Origin: a virus
Taxonomy: Duplodnaviria > Heunggongvirae > Uroviricota > Caudoviricetes
Reading direction: 5' to 3' (one strand)
Virus record (IMG/VR): IMGVR_UViG_2711768053_000019
DNA length: 55,142 bases
Part shown: piece after piece, positions 7,459-55,142 of the stretch
How positions within the stretch are numbered: position 1 is the first letter of the stretch
Layout of the letters: each line of letters opens with the position of its first letter
Program-made: the position numbers and the translations under genes
The notes under the pieces: model-generated
Databases searched by the model: none
What the model was told of the DNA's origin: nothing
What the model saw: only the letters and a program-made list of their open reading frames with translations

Positions 7459-8004
7459 ATGACTATGCAACCACTTACATACCAACAGACTAGCGGATTT
7501 AGCCCGACTGCGGTGATAAATCGTTCTCAAACAAAACAGGCGCCAGGCCACGAAAAAATCCGTGATGCCGTTCGCGCCTGGTCGGCTGCAGATAATCAGG
7601 ATGTTGTTGCCGCACTCATTGTGAATGAGTATCGGGAGCAGGGCGGCGGCACCATCGATTTCCCTGATGATGTCAGCCGTGCACGCCAGAAGCTGTTCCG
7701 CTTCCTCGATAACAAATTCGATTCTGAAAAATACCGAAATAACGTGCGTGAACTGACCCCGGCAATTCTGGCGGTACTACCGCTGGAATATCGCGGCCAC
7801 CTGGTTGAGCAGGATAGCTACATGGCTCGGCTGGCTGAAATGGAAAAGGAACTCAGTGAGGCAAAACAGGCTGTCATTCTCAACGCACCACGCCACCAGA
7901 AACTGAAGGAGATGAGTGAAGGCATTGTGTCGATGTTTCGTGTGGACCCGGATTTGGCTGGTCCACTGATGGCGATGGTCACCACCATGCTGGGGGCAAT
8001 ATGA
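7459..8004 (+). CDS. CII-like regulatory protein (YdaT/CP76-type), 181 aa
   Basis: Position immediately after cro and before O; family assignment is from recollection of Rac ydaS-ydaT arrangement and is not verified. Confidence 0.5.
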   Translation: MTMQPLTYQQTSGFSPTAVINRSQTKQAPGHEKIRDAVRAWSAADNQDVVAALIVNEYREQGGGTIDFPDDVSRARQKLFRFLDNKFDSEKYRNNVRELTPAILAVLPLEYRGHLVEQDSYMARLAEMEKELSEAKQAVILNAPRHQKLKEMSEGIVSMFRVDPDLAGPLMAMVTTMLGAI

Positions 8005-9718: not shown

Positions 9719-9835
9719 AAGACAACTGTGTTAAGTTCTCGTTAACATTAGGGGTAACATAGGGAGTATAAGATAGTGGAATGCATCATTTTATTGTTGC
9801 GAAAATGATCGAACCAACTGGATATCGTGTATCAT

Positions 9836-11809
9836 ATGGAACCGATGATAACTTTCATGGAATGTCTCGGTATATATATGAAAATTAGACCACAGCAGCA
9901 CCTAATTAACATCCTGACTTCAACCAAACAACATCATCCAAATTTTACTCTTTTTCTTGGTGCAGGTGCTAGTATCTCAAGTGGTGTTGATAGTGCTGGT
10001 GGGATGATAAGGCGCTGGAGAGATGCTTACACTCTAATGTATGGAGAAGATGCTCTCAAAAAACAAGTTTGGTACGATAAAGATAATGAGTATTCAGAGC
10101 TTTTTGAAGCATTATATGATCAACCAACTCAAAGAAGAGAATTTATTGAAAGTTGTATTACCGCAGCTAAACCATCTTGGGGATACGTTTATCTCACAAA
10201 TCTATTGGATAAAGGCCATTTTAATACAATTTTTACGACTAACTTCGATGATTTAGTCAATGAAGCTTGCTTTACCTTTTCTAATAATCTGAGACCAATA
10301 GTGTGTGCCCACGATTCAAGTATCAACAGCATACGTTTAACCACAGCTCGGCCAAAAATAATAAAATTACATGGTGATTTTTTATTTGACAATATCAAGA
10401 ATACTATAAGGGAGCTTGAGTCACTTGAAGATAACATGAGGGCCAAATTTAGACAGTTTGCAACTGAATTTGGCATGATCGTTATTGGGTACTCGGGACA
10501 CGACCGTTCAATTATGGATACTCTCAATACGTTATTGCATTCCGGTAGTTGTTTTCCTCATGGGATTTATTGGTGTATCCGTGACTCAGACACTGAAAAA
10601 CTTTCTGAGCAACTTAAAAATCTGGCCCGCTTTCCTCATTTTCATCTTATTAAAATTAATGGATTTGATGAGTTCATGGCTGAATTACATTACGCATTAG
10701 GCTGTAATTTGCAGCAAGAGGTAGTAGAGCCATACTCTGCATTATCTAATAAACTAGATAGATATTTCTCTATAGCTGAAGAAGATGACGCAGATGTCCA
10801 GCATGAGATTATTAAAAGAGATATGAATAATCTTGCTGATCATGTCAGGAGAGTGAATACAGTAAGCCAGTTTGTAAAAAAAATAAAAGTACTTCTTTCA
10901 GAGAAAGACTCATCGTTAGATGATAATTCGATCACTAAATCTTTAGAAATAATGTTAAAGGAAACTAAATTTGCTGGTTCTCCTGAGGGGATTCATTTTT
11001 ATAATACCCCCAATTATTTGATTGCAAACTCTGCATTTCGTGCTGGAGAGTATAATGAATGTGTAGAATATGCTACTAAACATCTGGCTAATGGGAAATC
11101 TCTCGAAACAGAAGTATTAATACTTCGTTCCTATATTCATTTGGATAATGATTCTGAAATACAAAAGTCAATAGAAAGAATAACAAGTTATAACAAAATG
11201 AATGATGGTGAAGTTGGCAAGCTTGTAAATGGATTAGTGGACTTAATGGATGCTAAAAAATTCAAAATTGCGAATAGCCTTATGGACATACTTGAATCCC
11301 GAACAATACCGTCTAAACATAAGCAGTTATTGCTTATAAATAGAGTTCTTTGCAACAAATTACAAAAGCAGCCGCTTTCAGCAAAACAGCAACAAGAGCT
11401 TGAGGAAGTGCTGAATGAAGTGATAGATAAAAACGAAGCTTGGCTTGCTCTGGGGGCTGCTATACTTTTAGAAAAATGGGACATTGCTGAAGAAGTGCTA
11501 TCAGCATTAGATGAAACTGAGATAGTTACAATATTGACGCAATCAATGCCGATTTTTGACTTGATTTCTACAGAGTTTTATGAAAAGGTCAAGCTAGTAG
11601 CTATAGAGCGTGGTTATAACGTTTCATTCGAAGAAGAAACGGAGTTACCAGAGGTTGTTCCTGCTGAGGATGAGACTCAAAGTCTCAGTCCTGATGTGAG
11701 AGAAATACCTACAGATAAAAAGAAAGCCATAACTCACAAATCAGCAGACAATGATGAGGCATTTGATGGATTACGCACTGGCGAAGAAAGTATAAGCAAA
11801 CCAGCTTAA
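9836..11809 (+). CDS. SIR2-like domain protein with long helical C-terminal region (about 657 aa); candidate single-gene anti-phage NADase
   Basis: LFLGAGASISSG, FTTNFDD, IKLHGDF and VIGYSGHD align with conserved SIR2/ThsA-type motifs (GAGxS, TNYD, HG); no clear SD so start 9827-9875 is uncertain; region visibly AT-rich. Confidence 0.7.
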   Translation: MEPMITFMECLGIYMKIRPQQHLINILTSTKQHHPNFTLFLGAGASISSGVDSAGGMIRRWRDAYTLMYGEDALKKQVWYDKDNEYSELFEALYDQPTQRREFIESCITAAKPSWGYVYLTNLLDKGHFNTIFTTNFDDLVNEACFTFSNNLRPIVCAHDSSINSIRLTTARPKIIKLHGDFLFDNIKNTIRELESLEDNMRAKFRQFATEFGMIVIGYSGHDRSIMDTLNTLLHSGSCFPHGIYWCIRDSDTEKLSEQLKNLARFPHFHLIKINGFDEFMAELHYALGCNLQQEVVEPYSALSNKLDRYFSIAEEDDADVQHEIIKRDMNNLADHVRRVNTVSQFVKKIKVLLSEKDSSLDDNSITKSLEIMLKETKFAGSPEGIHFYNTPNYLIANSAFRAGEYNECVEYATKHLANGKSLETEVLILRSYIHLDNDSEIQKSIERITSYNKMNDGEVGKLVNGLVDLMDAKKFKIANSLMDILESRTIPSKHKQLLLINRVLCNKLQKQPLSAKQQQELEEVLNEVIDKNEAWLALGAAILLEKWDIAEEVLSALDETEIVTILTQSMPIFDLISTEFYEKVKLVAIERGYNVSFEEETELPEVVPAEDETQSLSPDVREIPTDKKKAITHKSADNDEAFDGLRTGEESISKPA

Positions 11810-11958: not shown

Positions 11959-12540
11959 TAACTATTGGCCAGTTTTTAATGAAATCATGCTTAATACAAT
12001 GTGATTTTTTTCACTTGTCGTAGTGCCGATCTGATTGCCATCGTCACAGGTACTCAGTAGCGAAAAAATACGTCTACTGGGTACCAATTATCCTCAATGA
12101 GAAGTGCAGCGCGCTCTAATAAAAAGGTGATTCACCGACAGCGAACTTTGTACACTCGCTTGGTTATGGCGAGCAGGTGATGCTAACCGCCTGCCAGAAT
12201 GTCACTCCACTTCCTCAAGTATCTGAGCGACGTGAAGCCGGTGGCTTGACTTACATCGAGCAAAAATATTTCCTGGCTCACAATAGGGTGCGAGCAATCG
12301 ATTCAGAACGGTATTAGAGCTGCTAATGATCCTTCATATTGCGCCTAAATCCACAAAATTGATTTTCAATAATCAACCCGCCATAATCATCTCATCGGAG
12401 CCTGAACAACTCCGGTGACTTCTGCGCTAAACGGGGACGTTTATGCGCACACACAATCCAAACTCACTTCTCCCGTCACAGATGCAGAAATGCACCTGCA
12501 ATTCTTTGCATCTAACGTTTGACCTCTGCGGAGGTGAAGC

Positions 12541-14499: not shown

Positions 14500-15597
14500 T
14501 TAGAACTGGTAAACCAGACCTACAGCAACGATGTCATCAGTGCTTACACCGAGTGCTTTAGTGAAGTCATTTTTGTCAAGCAGGTTGATTTTGTAATCAA
14601 CGAAAGTAGACATATTTTTGTTGAAGTAATAGGTTGCACCTACATCAACATATTTGACTAAGTCCTGATCGCCCCATACTCCAAGATCCTTACCTTTAGA
14701 TTGCAGGTAAGCAACGGACGGACGCAGACCGAAATCGAACTGATATTGTGCAACAGCTTCGAAGTTTTGAGCTTTATTAGCAACGAAGTGATCAGCAAAT
14801 ACAGTCATATTCTGGGTTTCAGAATAGGTAGTGGCCAGGTAAATGTTGTTAGCGTCATATTTCAGACCTGCGGCCCAAACTTCTGCATTTTTACCGGAAG
14901 CAAATACTTCAGGAAGAACTTTCCCTGCATTAACTTGAGTGTCGGTACGATCAGATTTTGCATAAGTTGCACCGATACCGAATCCTTCGTATTCATAGGT
15001 AGCAGAGAAACCGAAGCCATCACCGTTACCTTCGGTGTAGTTATCGAAATCGCTACGATCGTTTTTGCCTTGGTACTGAGCAGCAAAGTTCAGACCATCA
15101 ACCAGGCCAAAGAAGTCGTTGTTACGATAGGTTGCAACACCAGTGGTGCGACCAGTCATGAACACATCTGTTTGGGTCCAGGTATCGCCACCGAATTCTG
15201 GCAGAACGTCAGTCCACGCACCGATGTCGTATGCTACACCGTAGTTACGGCCGTAATCGATGGAGCCGTAGTCACCGAATTTCAGGCCAGCGAAGGCAAG
15301 ACGGGTTTTATCTTTGGAGGAACCTTGAGATTCAGCGCGGTTGCCTTTGAATTCATATTCCCACTGACCGAAACCAGTCAGTTGATCGTTGATTTGGGTT
15401 TCACCTTTGAAGCCAAGACGGGCATAAGTAGTATCACCATCATCTGCATCATTAGAGGAGAAGTAGTGCTTAGCATTAACTTTCCCGTACAGATCCAGCT
15501 TGTTACTGTCTTTATTATAAATTTCAGCTGCCTGAGCAGACATCGCCATCAGTACTGATGCAGCTACAGCAGAAATTGCCACTGTTAATTTTTTCAT
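14500..15597 (-). CDS. nmpC: OmpC/OmpF-family outer-membrane porin (NmpC-like), 365 aa
   Basis: Signal peptide [24 protein letters not shown]-terminal ...VGLVYQF beta-barrel terminus; opposite strand to phage late genes; AT-rich upstream region 15598-16170. Confidence 0.85.
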
Positions 15598-49933: not shown

Positions 49934-49944
49934 GTGGGGTGAAT

Positions 49945-52900
49945 ATGGCAGTAAAGATTTCAGGTGTACTGAAAGACGGTGCAGGTAAACCGGTACAGAA
50001 CTGCACAATCCAGCTGAAAGCAAAACGTAACAGCACCACGGTGGTGGTGAACACGCTGGCCTCAGAAAATCCGGATGAAGCCGGGCGTTACAGCATGGAC
50101 GTTGAGTACGGTCAGTACAGCGTTATTCTGTTGGTGGAAGGATTCCCGCCGTCATATGCCGGGACCATCACCGTGTATGAAGATTCTCAACCTGGTACGC
50201 TGAATGATTTTCTCGGTGCCATGACGGAGGATGATGTCCGTCCGGAGGCACTGCGCCGCTTTGAACTGATGGTGGAAGAGGTGGCGCGTAACGCGTCCGC
50301 AGTGGCACAGAACACGGCAGCCGCGAAGAAGTCAGCCAGTGATGCCCGCACATCAGCCCGTGAGGCGGCAACCCATGCGACTGATGCTGCGGACTCCGCA
50401 CGCGCAGCCAGCACGTCAGCCGGACAGGCCGCGTCGTCGGCTCAGTCAGCGTCTTCCAGCGCAGGAACGGCATCAACAAAGGCTACTGAAGCATCAAAAA
50501 GTGCTGCCGCTGCAGAGTCCTCAAAAAGCGTGGCAGCTACCAGTGCCGGTGCGGCGAAAACGTCAGAAACGAATGCCGCAGCGTCAGAACAATCAGCCGC
50601 CACTTCTGCATCCACCGCGACCACGAAAGCGTCAGAAGCTGCCACCTCAGCCCGGGATGCGGCGGCCTCAAAAGAGGCAGCGAAATCATCAGAAACGAAC
50701 GCATCCTTGAGCGCCAGTAGCGCAGCTTCCTCGGCAACGGCGGCAGGAAATTCCGCGAAGGCGGCAAAAACGTCCGAGACGAACGCCAGGTCTTCTGAGA
50801 CGGCAGCGGGACAGAGCGCCTCAGCTGCGGCAGGCTCAAAAACAGCGGCTGCGTCGTCTGCCAGTGCCGCGTCAACAAGTGCCGGGCAGGCCTCAGCCAG
50901 TGCCACCGCCGCCGGAAAATCGGCAGAAAGCGCCGCATCATCCGCTTCAACAGCCACAACGAAGGCTGGCGAAGCCACTGAGCAGGCCACGGCAGCAGCG
51001 AGGTCAGCTTCCGCAGCGAAGACATCCGAAACGAACGCGAAAGCGTCGGAAACCCGTGCAGAATCCTCAAAAACGGCAGCGGCATCGTCCGCCAGTTCGG
51101 CGGCGTCATCGGCATCATCGGCGTCTGCTTCAAAAGATGAGGCGACCAGACAGGCGTCAGCAGCGAAGGGCAGCGCCACGACGGCATCCACGAAGGCGAC
51201 AGAGGCTGCTGGTAGTGCGAAGGCAGCAGCTCAGAGCAAAAGTACGGCGGAATCTGCAGCAACGCGCGCTGAGACAGCGGCAAAACGGGCAGAGGATATT
51301 GCATCCGCCGTGGCGCTTGAGGATGCGAGCACGACGAAAAAGGGGATAGTACAGCTCAGTAGTGCGACTAACAGCACTTCCGAGTCACTGGCGGCAACAC
51401 CAAAAGCCGTTAAGGCCGCGTATGACCTGGCTAGCGGGAAATACACCGCACAGGATGCAACGACAGCACAGAAAGGGATAATCCAGCTAAGCAGCGCGAC
51501 CAACAGCACGTCTGAAACGCTGGCGGCAACGCCAAAGGCAGTAAAAGCAGCCAATGACAATGCTGAGAAACGTCTGCAGAAAGATCAGAACGGTGCGGAT
51601 ATCCCTGGCAAAGACACCTTTACGAAAAATATTGGTGCCTGCCGTGCCTTCGGTGGGTCAGTAAGCACAACAACAGGAAACTGGACGACTGCACAGTTTA
51701 TCGAGTGGCTGGATTCTCAGGGAGCATTTAACCATCCATACTGGATGTGCAAGGGTTCCTGGTCTTATGGCAATAATAAAATCATTACTGATACTGGCTG
51801 CGGTAATATTCATCTCGCCGGAGCTGTCATTGAAGTAATGGGGATAAAGTCAGCGATGACGATCCGCATTACCACTCCGACCACATCCAGCGGTGGCGGA
51901 ACAACCAACGCCCAGTTTACCTATATTAATCACGGAACAGATTATTCACCTGGCTGGCGAAGGGACTATAACTCCAGAAATAAGCCAACGGCATCAGAGA
52001 TCGGGGCGCTACCGTCAGGTGGAACAGCAGTATCATCAGTTAATCTGGCTTCAAAAGGTCGGGTAGCCGCGCTGACAGACAATACGCAGGGGGCAGCAGG
52101 TCTTGAGTTATACGAGGTGTATAACAACGGATATCCAACAACGTATGGAAATATCATTCACCTGAAAGGGATGACAGCCGTTGGCGAAGGTGAGTTACTC
52201 ATCGGCTGGAGTGGTACAAGCGGTGCTCATGCTCCGGCATTTATTCGTTCACGACGGGATACGACCGACGCAAACTGGTCGCCGTGGGCGCAGCTTTACA
52301 CCTCGGCTCATCCTCCTGCAGAGTTTTATCCAGTCGGTGCACCAATCCCGTGGCCATCAGATACCGTTCCGTCTGGTTATGTCCTGATGCAGGGGCAGAC
52401 TTTTGACAAATCTGCATACCCGAAACTTGCAGCCGCTTATCCGTCAGGCGTGATCCCTGATATGCGTGGCTGGACGATTAAGGGCAAACCTGCCAGTGGT
52501 CGGGCCGTATTGTCTCAGGAACAGGACGGCATTAAATCGCACACCCACAGCGCCAGCGCATCCAGTACGGATTTGGGGACGAAAACCACATCGTCGTTTG
52601 ATTACGGCACTAAATCCACGAATAACATCGGGGCGCATACGCACAGTGTGAGCGGTACAGCCGCAAGTGCCGGAAACCATACTCATAGTGTCACAGGCGC
52701 ATCAGCAGTCAGCCAGTGGTCACAAAATGGGTCAGTACATAAGGTAGTGTCTGCGGCCAGTGTGAATACAAGTGCTGCAGGAGCGCACACTCATAGTGTC
52801 AGCGGCACAGCTGCATCTGCAGGTGCTCACGCACATACTGTCGGTATTGGTGCTCATACGCACTCGGTTGCGATTGGCTCACATGGACACACCATCACCG

Positions 52901-52971
52901 TTAACGCTGCTGGTAACGCGGAAAACACCGTCAAAAACATCGCATTTAACTATATTGTGAGGCTTGCATGA
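49945..52971 (+). CDS. stf: Side tail fibre protein Stf (about 1008 aa) with Ala/Ser/Thr-rich repetitive shaft and His-rich tip
   Basis: N-terminus [36 protein letters not shown]; C-terminal HxH repeats (GAHTHSVSG...AHAHTV...AHTHSV...SHGHTI) and ...[18 protein letters not shown]. Confidence 0.85.
50280..51300 (+). repeat. Low-complexity tandem repeat region inside stf (Ala/Ser/Thr-rich, AAKTSETNA-like units)
   Basis: Repeated [10 protein letters not shown] / SASAAS segments in translation; second duplicated block KKGI(V/I)[11 protein letters not shown](S/T)[11 protein letters not shown] at about 51340-51560. Confidence 0.6.
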
Positions 52972-53870
52972 TTACGCTCATTCTTTCTGCACCAGTAACC
53001 GAAATGGCTGAAGCATTTAAGCGGGTATTTGCAAATGCAGATAATGTGAATATTGTCGGAAAGCCATTTGAAACAATCAGAGAATTTGACTGCATGGTAA
53101 GTGCGGCAAATAGTTTCGGCCTGATGGATGGCGGTGTTGATGCCGCCATTACCACATTCTTCGGTTCTCAGCTACAGGCCCGCGTTCAGAATCATATTCT
53201 TCGTGAATATCTCGGCGAGCAGCCTGTAGGTTCTGCATTTGTTATTGAAACGGGGCATAATTATCACCCCTGGCTGGTACATGCGCCAACAATGCGTGTT
53301 CCGTTGACAATTGACGGAACAGACGCTGTATATAACGCAACTTGGGCAGCTCTACTTGCTATCTTTCAGCACAATAAAAACGCAACGACAGACAGGAAAA
53401 TAAAGACGGTGGTATTCCCTGCAATGGGAGCCGGATGTGGTCAGGTGCCGTTTGAAAGCGTTGCCCGGCAGATGAAGCAGGCATGGGATAACTTTAATAA
53501 AAAAACAGAATCAATTAACTGGGAATACGCACAATCCCGCCAGTCGGCAGTATTTGGCACATATGCATACTGTCCGGGTAATTCTGTTTGCCGTTATGCG
53601 GATACTAAATATATTGGATGCGGCGATTATCGGACGTATTGCTCACGTTCCGGGCAGGTCTGTATTAACCCTGAACATCAGGCTGATGATGTACTGATAC
53701 AACATCAGGCTAATAACCGGTTTCGCCCTGGTTCGCATATACACCGGATTAATCCAGAAAATCCTGTAGGTAATGTCATCTCTGGCGCACATAGCCACGG
53801 AAGTAGCATCGTTATTGGTGCTCACACCCATACGCTCAATAAACAATATTCTGTCTCTGATATTAAGTAG
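52968..53870 (+). CDS. Macro-domain protein with His-rich fibre-tip-like C-terminus (300 aa), inserted between stf and tfa
   Basis: [18 protein letters not shown] and [11 protein letters not shown] match macro-domain motifs (NAAN, GGGVxxAI, FPAISTGxxG); C-terminal GSHIHR...[18 protein letters not shown] resembles stf HxH repeats; ATGA overlap with stf stop. Confidence 0.6.
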
Positions 53871-53878
53871 AGGTGAAC

Positions 53879-54454
53879 ATGGATTTCAGAATGAGTGAAC
53901 AACCACGGACCATAACAATTTATAATCTGCTGGCCGGAACTAATGAATTTATTGGTGAAGGTGACGCATACATTCCGCCTCATACAGGTCTGCCAGCAAA
54001 CAGTACCGATATTGCACCGCCAGATATTCCGGCTGGTTTCGTGGCTGTTTTCAACAGTGATGAGTCATCGTGGCATCTCGTTGAAGATCATCGGGGTAAA
54101 ACGGTTTATGACGTGGCTTCCGGCGACGCGTTATTTATTTCTGAACTCGGCTCATTACCGGAAAATGTCACCTGGTTATCCCCGGAAGGGGAGTTTCAGA
54201 AGTGGAACGGCACAGCCTGGGTGAAGGATACGGAAGCAGAAAAACTGTTCCGGATCCGGGAGGCGGAAGAAACAAAAAACAGCCTGATGCAGGTAGCCAG
54301 TGAGCATATAGCGCCGCTTCAGGATGCTGTGGATCTGGAGATCGCAACGGAGAAAGAAACCTTGTTGCTGGAAGCCTGGAAAAAGTATCGGGTGTTGCTG
54401 AACCGTGTTGATACATCAACTGCACCGGATATTGAATGGCCAGCCCTACCGTAG
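53879..54454 (+). CDS. tfa: Tail fibre assembly protein Tfa, about 191 aa
   Basis: [54 protein letters not shown]... lambda Tfa by recall. Confidence 0.8.
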
Positions 54455-54551: not shown

Positions 54552-55142
54552 TTATATATCAGGTGTCTGATTTTTTGCTTTAGCTCTTAAAATGGTTTGC
54601 CGCGAGGTTTTGAATTCTTGGGCAATGTCACTTATATTTATACCTGACTTAATTTGCTCTAGTACCCTCTGTATTTGTTCATCATTTAACACAGGTGGGC
54701 GACCAAATCGCTTTCCTGCGCCCCGTGCTCTTAATATCCCTGAATGAGTACGCTCAAGTAAAAGGTCTCGCTCAAATTCAGCGACTGCTGAAATTACTTG
54801 CATCATCATTTTTCCAGGTGGACTGGTCAGGTCAACGCCCCCCAATGCTAAGCAATGCACTTTGATACCTGCTTTGGTCAGTTGTTCCACCGTTTTACTG
54901 ATATCCATTGGATTACAACCGAGGCGATCCAGTTTTGTGACAATCAATGCATCACCTCTTTTCAGTCGATCAAGCAACTGGTTAAAACCAGGACGCTCAC
55001 TGGTTGCTGCTGAGCCGCTAATTTGTTCTTCAATTATTTGCTGAGATTTGATGTTAAAACCTGCACTTTCGATTTCCCGACGTTGATTTTTGGTTGTCTT
55101 TTCCAGAGTTGATACCCGACAGTAAGCATAAATTCGAGACAT
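54552..55142 (-). CDS. Serine recombinase (resolvase/invertase family), 196 aa; start codon at window edge
   Basis: YCRVST (catalytic Ser region), LDRLGC, C-terminal HTH; ATG is the last three bases of the window on the minus strand. Confidence 0.8.

Follow-up and report, generated by a model that had tools for sequence, protein, structure and literature searches.

A gene lodged between the side tail fibre gene and the gene of its assembly chaperone in a lambdoid prophage encodes a 300-residue protein in which a macro domain is joined to a C-terminal tail related to the needle of the fibre itself. The explanation that best accounts for the material as a whole is that this protein is a hydrolase of ADP-ribose derivatives of the Macro-2 (Ymx7) type, carried as an optional late cargo, with a probable role in counter-defence, and oligomerised by its fibre-needle tail. 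We hold this reading tentatively, at a probability of about 0.45. The enzyme would bind ADP-ribose and, most likely, cleave a group off the 1'' position of some free ADP-ribose derivative. The candidate substrates are compounds resembling ADP-ribose-1''-phosphate or, alternatively, NAD-derived products or signals of bacterial immunity. The target would probably be an NAD-based defence, and the tail may have been taken from the neighbouring fibre.

The Fibre Locus

The stretch of DNA that was analysed, referred to below as the window, comprises 55,142 nucleotides of a virus of the class Caudoviricetes (IMG/VR record IMGVR_UViG_2711768053_000019). It represents a complete lambdoid prophage with an integrase gene (1-1164), O/P replication genes, and genes for the gpA terminase, J, Lom, Stf, Tfa, and a Pin-like recombinase. 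Three genes of its fibre locus are relevant here:

49939..52971, + strand: stf, the side tail fibre gene (Pfam); the final ~215 residues (nt 52324-52968) are closely homologous to the receptor-binding tip of T4 gp37, with five G[AS]HxH repeats
52968..53870, + strand: the macro-domain gene, 300 codons plus stop; belongs to PHROG 2613 and to the RefSeq 'macro domain-containing protein' family and is a homologue of Gifsy-1 STM2587
53879..54454, + strand: tfa, the tail fibre assembly chaperone gene, of the lambda Tfa type (Pfam Caudo_TAP, E=3.7e-44)

The preliminary description of this DNA had placed a macro-domain gene with an overlapping start between stf and tfa, and this arrangement is borne out. 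The open reading frame at 52968-53870 (+) encodes 300 aa, its ATG shares the tetranucleotide ATGA (52968-52971) with the TGA of stf, and the tfa ATG (53879) follows 8 nt past the macro stop codon. This ATG was taken as the tfa start on the basis of the encoded N-terminus, MDFRMSEQ... here and MAFRMSEQ... in an allele that lacks the macro gene. In a search of the PHROGs, the macro protein fell into family 2613 (E=3e-147), which is listed as being of 'unknown function'.

The prophage carries further genes that may be recorded. An ORF with a YdaT_toxin domain (7459-8004, +) lies upstream of replication gene O, and a full-length general porin gene (14500-15597, -; Pfam Porin_1, E=1e-156) is located between the nin-type region and the lysis genes. 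Directly downstream of tfa, there is a serine recombinase gene of the Pin/Gin type (54552-55142, -), whose start codon lies at the very end of the window. An invertible fibre segment of the Pin/Gin type that would include the macro gene was considered and rejected. Because neither a sequence resembling the crossover site AAACCNNGGTTT nor convincing inverted repeats were detected around stf, the macro gene, and tfa, no invertible segment is evident within the window.

An Optional Segment between stf and tfa

The comparison of alleles defines precisely what distinguishes the cassette of the window from its macro-less counterparts, and two features are required to describe it:

52959..52962, + strand: GAGG within the final codons of stf, with 5 nt between it and the macro ATG (read from the sequence)
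52970..53878, + strand: a 909-bp segment found here but not in stf-tfa cassettes that are otherwise 99% identical

The direct succession of stf and tfa, which had been put forward as the normal order, was checked on a macro-less allele with 99% flank identity and proved correct; the two flanks of one such allele are 99.0% and 98.9% identical to those of the window. At the macro-less junction, GCAT is followed directly by AATGGCATTC, whereas here it is followed by GATTACG...GAGGTGAAC, after which the common sequence resumes with ATGGATTTC. The 909-bp segment consists of the macro ORF and a new Shine-Dalgarno sequence for tfa (GAGG, 53870-53873), which is separated by five bases from the tfa ATG. 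The GAGG inside stf thus has two uses: it serves the macro gene here and tfa in the macro-less alleles.

The stf 3' end and tfa lie next to each other, with no macro gene between them, in thousands of E. coli genomes. Of 5426 complete E. coli genomes, 5209 have this cassette, at 12,504 places in total, and only 128 have the macro gene. Judged by these sequences, the macro gene is accessory and dispensable for fibre assembly since this stf end and tfa also occur in its absence, at 99% identity. It would be an optional cargo, dropped exactly between the stf stop and the tfa start. Among the traits of a classical moron, the gene displays presence/absence polymorphism and a deviant composition (GC content of 44-48% versus ~54% in the stf 3' end) but not a promoter and terminator of its own.

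Disrupted copies were also encountered. In E. coli ST2350 (NZ_CP031321.1, 3294774-3298119), a copy identical to that of the window is split by an IS3-family transposase gene, and truncated copies also occur. Salmonella phage SEN34 (locus L015, 4001-4183) carries a decayed 3' relic downstream of its fibre, chaperone, and acyltransferase genes; the Cys region and the first GAHSH can be recognized, stop codons precede them, and no macro domain is left. Taken together, these copies indicate that the gene can be lost.

Placement across Enterobacterial Phages

The position of the gene was surveyed in 80 IMG/VR loci with macro identities of 51-100%. In each of the 78 loci with upstream sequence, the end of a Stf-type tip coincides exactly with the macro ATG, and a Tfa homologue directly follows the macro gene in 77 of 79. 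The order stf-macro-tfa was observed in lambdoid and P2-like (Chuche) phages, in a P1-like and an SSU5-like plasmid, and in phage-plasmids of ~47 kb. It was also found in Salmonella prophages with Mu-type baseplates, in SEN4 and SEN5, and in Gifsy-1 of S. Typhimurium LT2. The fibre tips beside the gene are strongly mosaic, with tip identities of 55-100% versus macro identities of 96-98%.

The Gifsy-1 genes STM2587/STM2588.1n offer the closest comparison with an annotated locus. The protein belongs to the same family (~70% identity over residues 1-264), and the gene order and the overlap with the fibre stop codon are the same. In contrast to the window protein, STM2587 is 274 aa long and has a shorter, different tail with one or two HxH motifs. 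The Gifsy-1 record has already been annotated as containing a Macro domain. The only paper found to mention this gene treats STM2586-STM2587-STM2588 as a single operon and includes it among the operons that it flags after treatment of the cells with the mutagen MX (PMC2225428).

A second slot lies 3' of tfa, and its cargo differs from phage to phage (loci L001, 10609-12508; L003, 6493-7038; L014, 6490-10754; L006, 7531-8903). It is occupied by a reverse transcriptase and SLATT gene in ST131, a serine acetyltransferase gene in the P1-like plasmid, PagK-like and GogB genes in Gifsy-1, NleG-like effector genes in Salmonella prophages, and Pin in the window. This slot looks like a cargo hotspot beside the macro slot.

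The Macro Domain and Its Clade

The N-terminal part of the protein is the macro domain itself, according to both Pfam and the AlphaFold2 (AF2) model:

52968..53552, + strand: macro domain proper, residues 1-195 (Pfam, AF2, Foldseek, profile search against the PDB; pooled dN/dS 0.13)

The assignment to the macro domains, which had been proposed from motifs, withstood both a profile search and structure prediction. Pfam Macro (PF01661) matches residues 44-169 with 68.6 bits (gathering score 22; E=5.9e-19) over profile positions 1-118 of 118, and both motifs quoted in the preliminary description lie inside this match. The AF2 model, built on 85 relatives, has a pLDDT mostly above 90 for residues 1-190. 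Its three-layer alpha/beta/alpha fold is matched by Foldseek, with a probability of 1.0, to dozens of solved macrodomains.

The suggested binding of ADP-ribose finds support at the level of the sequence since the signature is intact. Residues D41, N48, G55-G56-x-D58, H105, and G154-x-G156-x-G158 are conserved throughout the family and also present in yeast Ymx7. D41, N48, G55, G56, D58, G154, G156, and G158 are invariant in the family alignment, and N48, G56, D58, G154, and G158 are at least 90% conserved among 85 diverse relatives.

The comparison with known structures points to one particular clade. In the Foldseek search against the PDB, only macrodomains were matched, and the best match was yeast Ymx7 (1njr; E=5.9e-11, 198 columns, rmsd 2.9). 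Ymx7 also came first when the family profile was compared with all PDB sequences (1njr, E=1.5e-16), and the alignment covered the whole domain including its N-terminal beta-alpha unit. Pfam Macro_2 (PF14519) scores the window protein just under its cut-off (23.4 bits versus 27), and a precomputed PF14519 match is present on many family members. The motifs VSxxNSxGxxxGGxDxA, HxPT, and PGLxTGxxxVP are common to the family and Ymx7 (YMR087W; PDB 1njr, 1txz, 1ty8), and the profile alignment places N, GGxD, HxPT, and GxGxG at shared positions. The N, D, and H of Ymx7 are residues that we take to be catalytic, and the positions aligned with them are invariant or nearly so in the macro family. However, the identity with Ymx7 is only ~21%, and Ymx7 is a eukaryotic housekeeping enzyme that has neither a Cys/HxH tail nor a phage context. 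No other Macro-2 member has been studied; Ymx7 turns ADP-ribose-1''-phosphate into ADP-ribose and lacks de-MARylating activity (PMC6397177).

The preliminary description had also raised an activity of the DarG kind that would reverse modification by DarT. The profiles give no support to this suggestion: NCBIfam DarG (NF048014) scores 12.7 bits against a cut-off of 250, and the PADLOC DarG model reaches only E=0.005 over 39 residues, so that membership in DarG was rejected. Because the best matches by fold and by profile are to Ymx7 and the DarG profiles fail, the domain is, by sequence and model, of the Ymx7 type (Macro-2 clade) and not an analogue of DarG or AdfM. AdfM (T4 Tk.4, PhiKZ gp104, PhiPA3 gp108) is likewise a stand-alone phage macrodomain and serves against ADP-ribose-based defence. 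Unlike the window protein, which is predicted to be late, belongs to another clade, and bears a fibre-like tail, AdfM is DarG/TARG1-like, uses a catalytic Lys, and acts on DNA.

When 1.84 billion representatives were searched exhaustively, 2360 relatives were retrieved. Outside the enterobacterial family, these are mostly stand-alone macro proteins of ~200 aa or domains in longer proteins from bacteria, phages, and eukaryotes, and they align to residues 1-195 only. The nearest viral models in the structure comparison are macro proteins of jumbo phages and giant viruses, with PhiPA3 gp271 among them. A 291-aa relative from the amoeba Balamuthia mandrillaris (P0130; 44% identity in the relatives' alignment) is named 'Phage-tail assembly protein-like protein', and several jumbo-phage macro proteins likewise carry a 'tail protein' annotation. 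We suspect that such names result from annotation transfer from the fibre-locus family.

The Cys Linker and the Fibre-Like Tail

Two further regions complete the protein:

53553..53687, + strand: Cys-rich linker, residues 196-240, with conserved C202, C208, C225, and C232; predicted helix and beta-hairpin; dN/dS 0.28
53688..53867, + strand: fibre-like tail, residues 241-300, with three G[AS]HxH repeats (nt 53730-53744, 53784-53798, and 53817-53831); dN/dS 0.46

In the family alignment, the near-invariant macro part is followed by the four cysteines and then by a region of variable length that mostly contains one to four GxHxH repeats, often nine residues apart. In the AF2 model, the macro domain is followed by a helix (185-200) and then by a beta-hairpin (211-225), with a pLDDT of 65-83. 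The four-Cys linker is possibly a metal knuckle. The last 60 residues are undefined in the monomer model (pLDDT below 50), and the tail may be disordered.

The HxH repeats had been likened to those of the stf tip, and this likeness is real. In the six-frame translation of the window (110,280 residues), G[AST]HxH occurs eight times, namely five times in the Stf tip and three times in the tail of the macro ORF. When a family-tail profile was compared with Stf-type tips by hhalign, the last two HxH repeats were aligned with a probability of 93.5% (E=2.2e-7). Since the motif is confined to these two places and the alignment is this probable, the resemblance is not due to chance. The Stf tip of the prophage, in turn, resembles the T4 gp37 tip (PDB 2xgf, E=2.7e-88). 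In work by Bartual et al. from 2010, the histidines of the gp37 needle are said to bind iron along the trimer axis. The macro tail shares the GxHxH repeats and their nine-residue spacing with the gp37 and lambda Stf needles. It differs from them in having only one to four repeats and in lacking the collar, the head domain, and the gp37 C-terminal end, and its trimer is only putative. Searches of the macro ORF with Pfam Phage_fiber, Collar, and phage_tail_N gave no match, and neither a virion-attachment N-terminus nor a gp37-type C-terminal end was found.

The C-terminal 105 residues, which comprise the four-Cys knuckle and the GxHxH repeats homologous to the last iron-binding repeats of gp37/Stf, most likely give a metal-bound oligomer. 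By analogy, this oligomer would be a trimer, and the neighbouring Tfa chaperone may help to fold the tail. The closest tail-less relative (63% identity, 207 aa) is encoded at another position, in a phage contig where ParB-like, methyltransferase, and terminase genes are its neighbours; the tail therefore goes with residence in the fibre locus. When the C-terminal 107 residues alone were used as the query, the homologue search returned only three fragments of the same family, and the PDB sequence search returned nothing.

The pattern of selection bears on what the tail is. It is doubtful, although this is the alternative that survives best, that the protein is a plain hitch-hiker, that is, a monomeric macro hydrolase residing in the most frequently exchanged phage cassette, with an HxH tail that is a recombination leftover of little or no function. 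The tail varies in length and in repeat number (0 to 4), the AF2 model leaves it disordered, and the fibre tips around the gene are strongly mosaic, all of which speaks for a leftover. Pooled dN/dS values rise from 0.13 in the macro domain to 0.28 in the Cys region and 0.46 in the tail (733 allele pairs, which are not independent of each other), and the tail value is near 1 in some close pairs. Nevertheless, the pooled tail value is below neutrality, and at least one HxH motif is kept in 106 of the 109 full-length family members, from E. coli, Salmonella, Erwinia, Citrobacter, and Enterobacter, despite the divergence of the tail around it. The frame also stays open through the tail: of 79 ORFs readable from start to stop, 75 reach at least 264 aa. 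Because of these dN/dS estimates, including the close pairs near 1, the tail is regarded, on sequence grounds, as a fast-evolving yet retained motif region and not as a dead remnant.

Somewhat less likely is a virion-associated accessory of the fibre, in which a GxHxH needle folded by Tfa would hold three macro domains at or next to the Stf tip and let the protein travel with the particle. The gene is coupled and invariant in position between fibre and chaperone at every assessable locus and in at least five phage backbones. Its tail is homologous to the iron-binding repeats of the fibre and is confined to those family members that reside in the fibre locus. Moreover, the packaging of macro and related proteins into virions has been proposed (PMC9503650). 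A precedent for the gene order is the T2/T6-type adhesin gp38, a separate protein that is encoded right after the long-fibre gene and works with the fibre tip. However, gp38 has no sequence or fold similarity to the macro protein and is needed for adsorption, whereas the macro gene can be dispensed with and precedes a normal Tfa chaperone gene. The near-identical Stf and Tfa found without the macro gene imply that the fibre neither needs the protein nor obviously offers a dedicated docking site. The protein starts with the macro domain and has no fibre-attachment domain, and its tail is not recognized by Pfam Phage_fiber. The conserved Asp in contact with adenine, together with the loops for ribose and phosphate, speaks for a nucleotide ligand inside the cell, which a protein located at the fibre tip would not enter. 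The related possibility that the macro enzyme is built into the particle, trimerised by a Tfa-folded iron-needle tail of the gp37 type and fixed by it to the side tail fibre or the chaperone, is more unlikely still.

Expression

No promoter-like site above chance was found upstream of the macro gene, and the idea of its own promoter for lysogenic expression was abandoned on this basis. A frameshift fusion of the macro protein to Stf was likewise rejected: the macro frame is closed by a TAA (52947-52949) that precedes the ATG by seven codons, and no slippery heptamer lies between the two. The gene is translationally coupled to stf through the ATGA overlap and supplies a fresh ribosome-binding site for tfa. 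Because of this coupling and the lack of its own promoter, the protein is expected to be made late in lytic growth, together with the fibre and the chaperone. Counter-defence enzymes are not usually made late, which is a difficulty unless the target defence fires late or the protein travels in the virion.

Proposed Function

No functional, biochemical, or genetic study of this family, or of macro domains at tail fibres, was found in the literature. On comparative grounds, Iyer and colleagues proposed that phage macro proteins mainly target soluble ADP-ribose derivatives, and some of these proteins are encoded among morphogenesis genes (PMC9503650). This proposal, the strong constraint on the enzyme, the retained ADP-ribose site, and the action of the clade on a soluble derivative are the reasons for which a late hydrolase of such derivatives is favoured here. 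For counter-defence by a phage macrodomain, AdfM offers a precedent. A part of this reading meets an objection. The only characterised Macro-2 enzyme acts in the metabolism of a tRNA-splicing by-product and not in immunity, which counts against a role in counter-defence.

It is improbable that the protein acts only as a sponge or sensor, binding a signal derived from ADP-ribose (His-ADPR or gcADPR, for instance) without catalysis. Macro domains can be pure binders, as exemplified by the ThsA macro domain with His-ADPR (bioRxiv 10.64898/2026.06.04.730250), and oligomeric sponges are a common phage strategy, but the positions aligned with the N, D, and H of Ymx7 are invariant or nearly so. The least likely function is that of a DarG- or AdfM-like enzyme that removes ADP-ribose from DNA and shields phage DNA from DarT toxins: the phage macrodomain AdfM acts in counter-defence in this way (PMC13309987; bioRxiv 10.1101/2025.11.20.689424), and the DarG macrodomain 5m3i is among the many Foldseek macro matches, but the best relatives are of the Ymx7 type, the proven AdfM of PhiPA3 is gp108 and the structural neighbour of the window protein is gp271, another gene, and expression would be late, after the onset of DNA replication.

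The prophage also encodes a SIR2_2-domain protein of 660 aa (9827-11809, +), just after a lambda-P-like replication gene. The best PADLOC matches of this ORF are the Aga_SIR2 and pAgo-associated SIR2 models (Argonaute-type systems) and PDC-S65. A functional link between the two genes had been considered suggestive, and it was rejected on the basis of their distribution in complete E. coli genomes. The DNA of the SIR2 gene occurs in 26 of 5426 genomes, always in the chromosome and never in a plasmid. The macro gene occurs in 128, plasmids included, as well as in Chuche and Gifsy-1, which lay outside the SIR2 search, and always stands beside stf and tfa.

Significance

The family as such is already known and has been annotated in RefSeq, in the Gifsy-1 record, and in PHROG. 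The fibre-needle tail, the exact and invariant insertion, and the assignment to the Ymx7-type clade appear not to have been described so far. That ADP-ribose-based immunity can be disarmed by phage macrodomains has been demonstrated only recently, and every proven case concerns an early protein of the DarG-like kind. The protein presented here belongs to a different macro clade, is carried by many temperate enterobacterial phages, is locked into the cassette that determines host range, and is fused to a piece of a fibre needle. Since natural alleles with and without the macro gene exist at 99% flank identity, its role can readily be tested either way. Should the protein break down an immune product or signal derived from NAD in the late phase of infection, counter-defence would gain both a new class and a new timing. 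Should it ride on the fibre, the view of what tail fibres carry would change. Built into the particle, it would be the first ADP-ribose-processing enzyme on a phage tail fibre or else a macro fold re-used as a binding module of the fibre tip.
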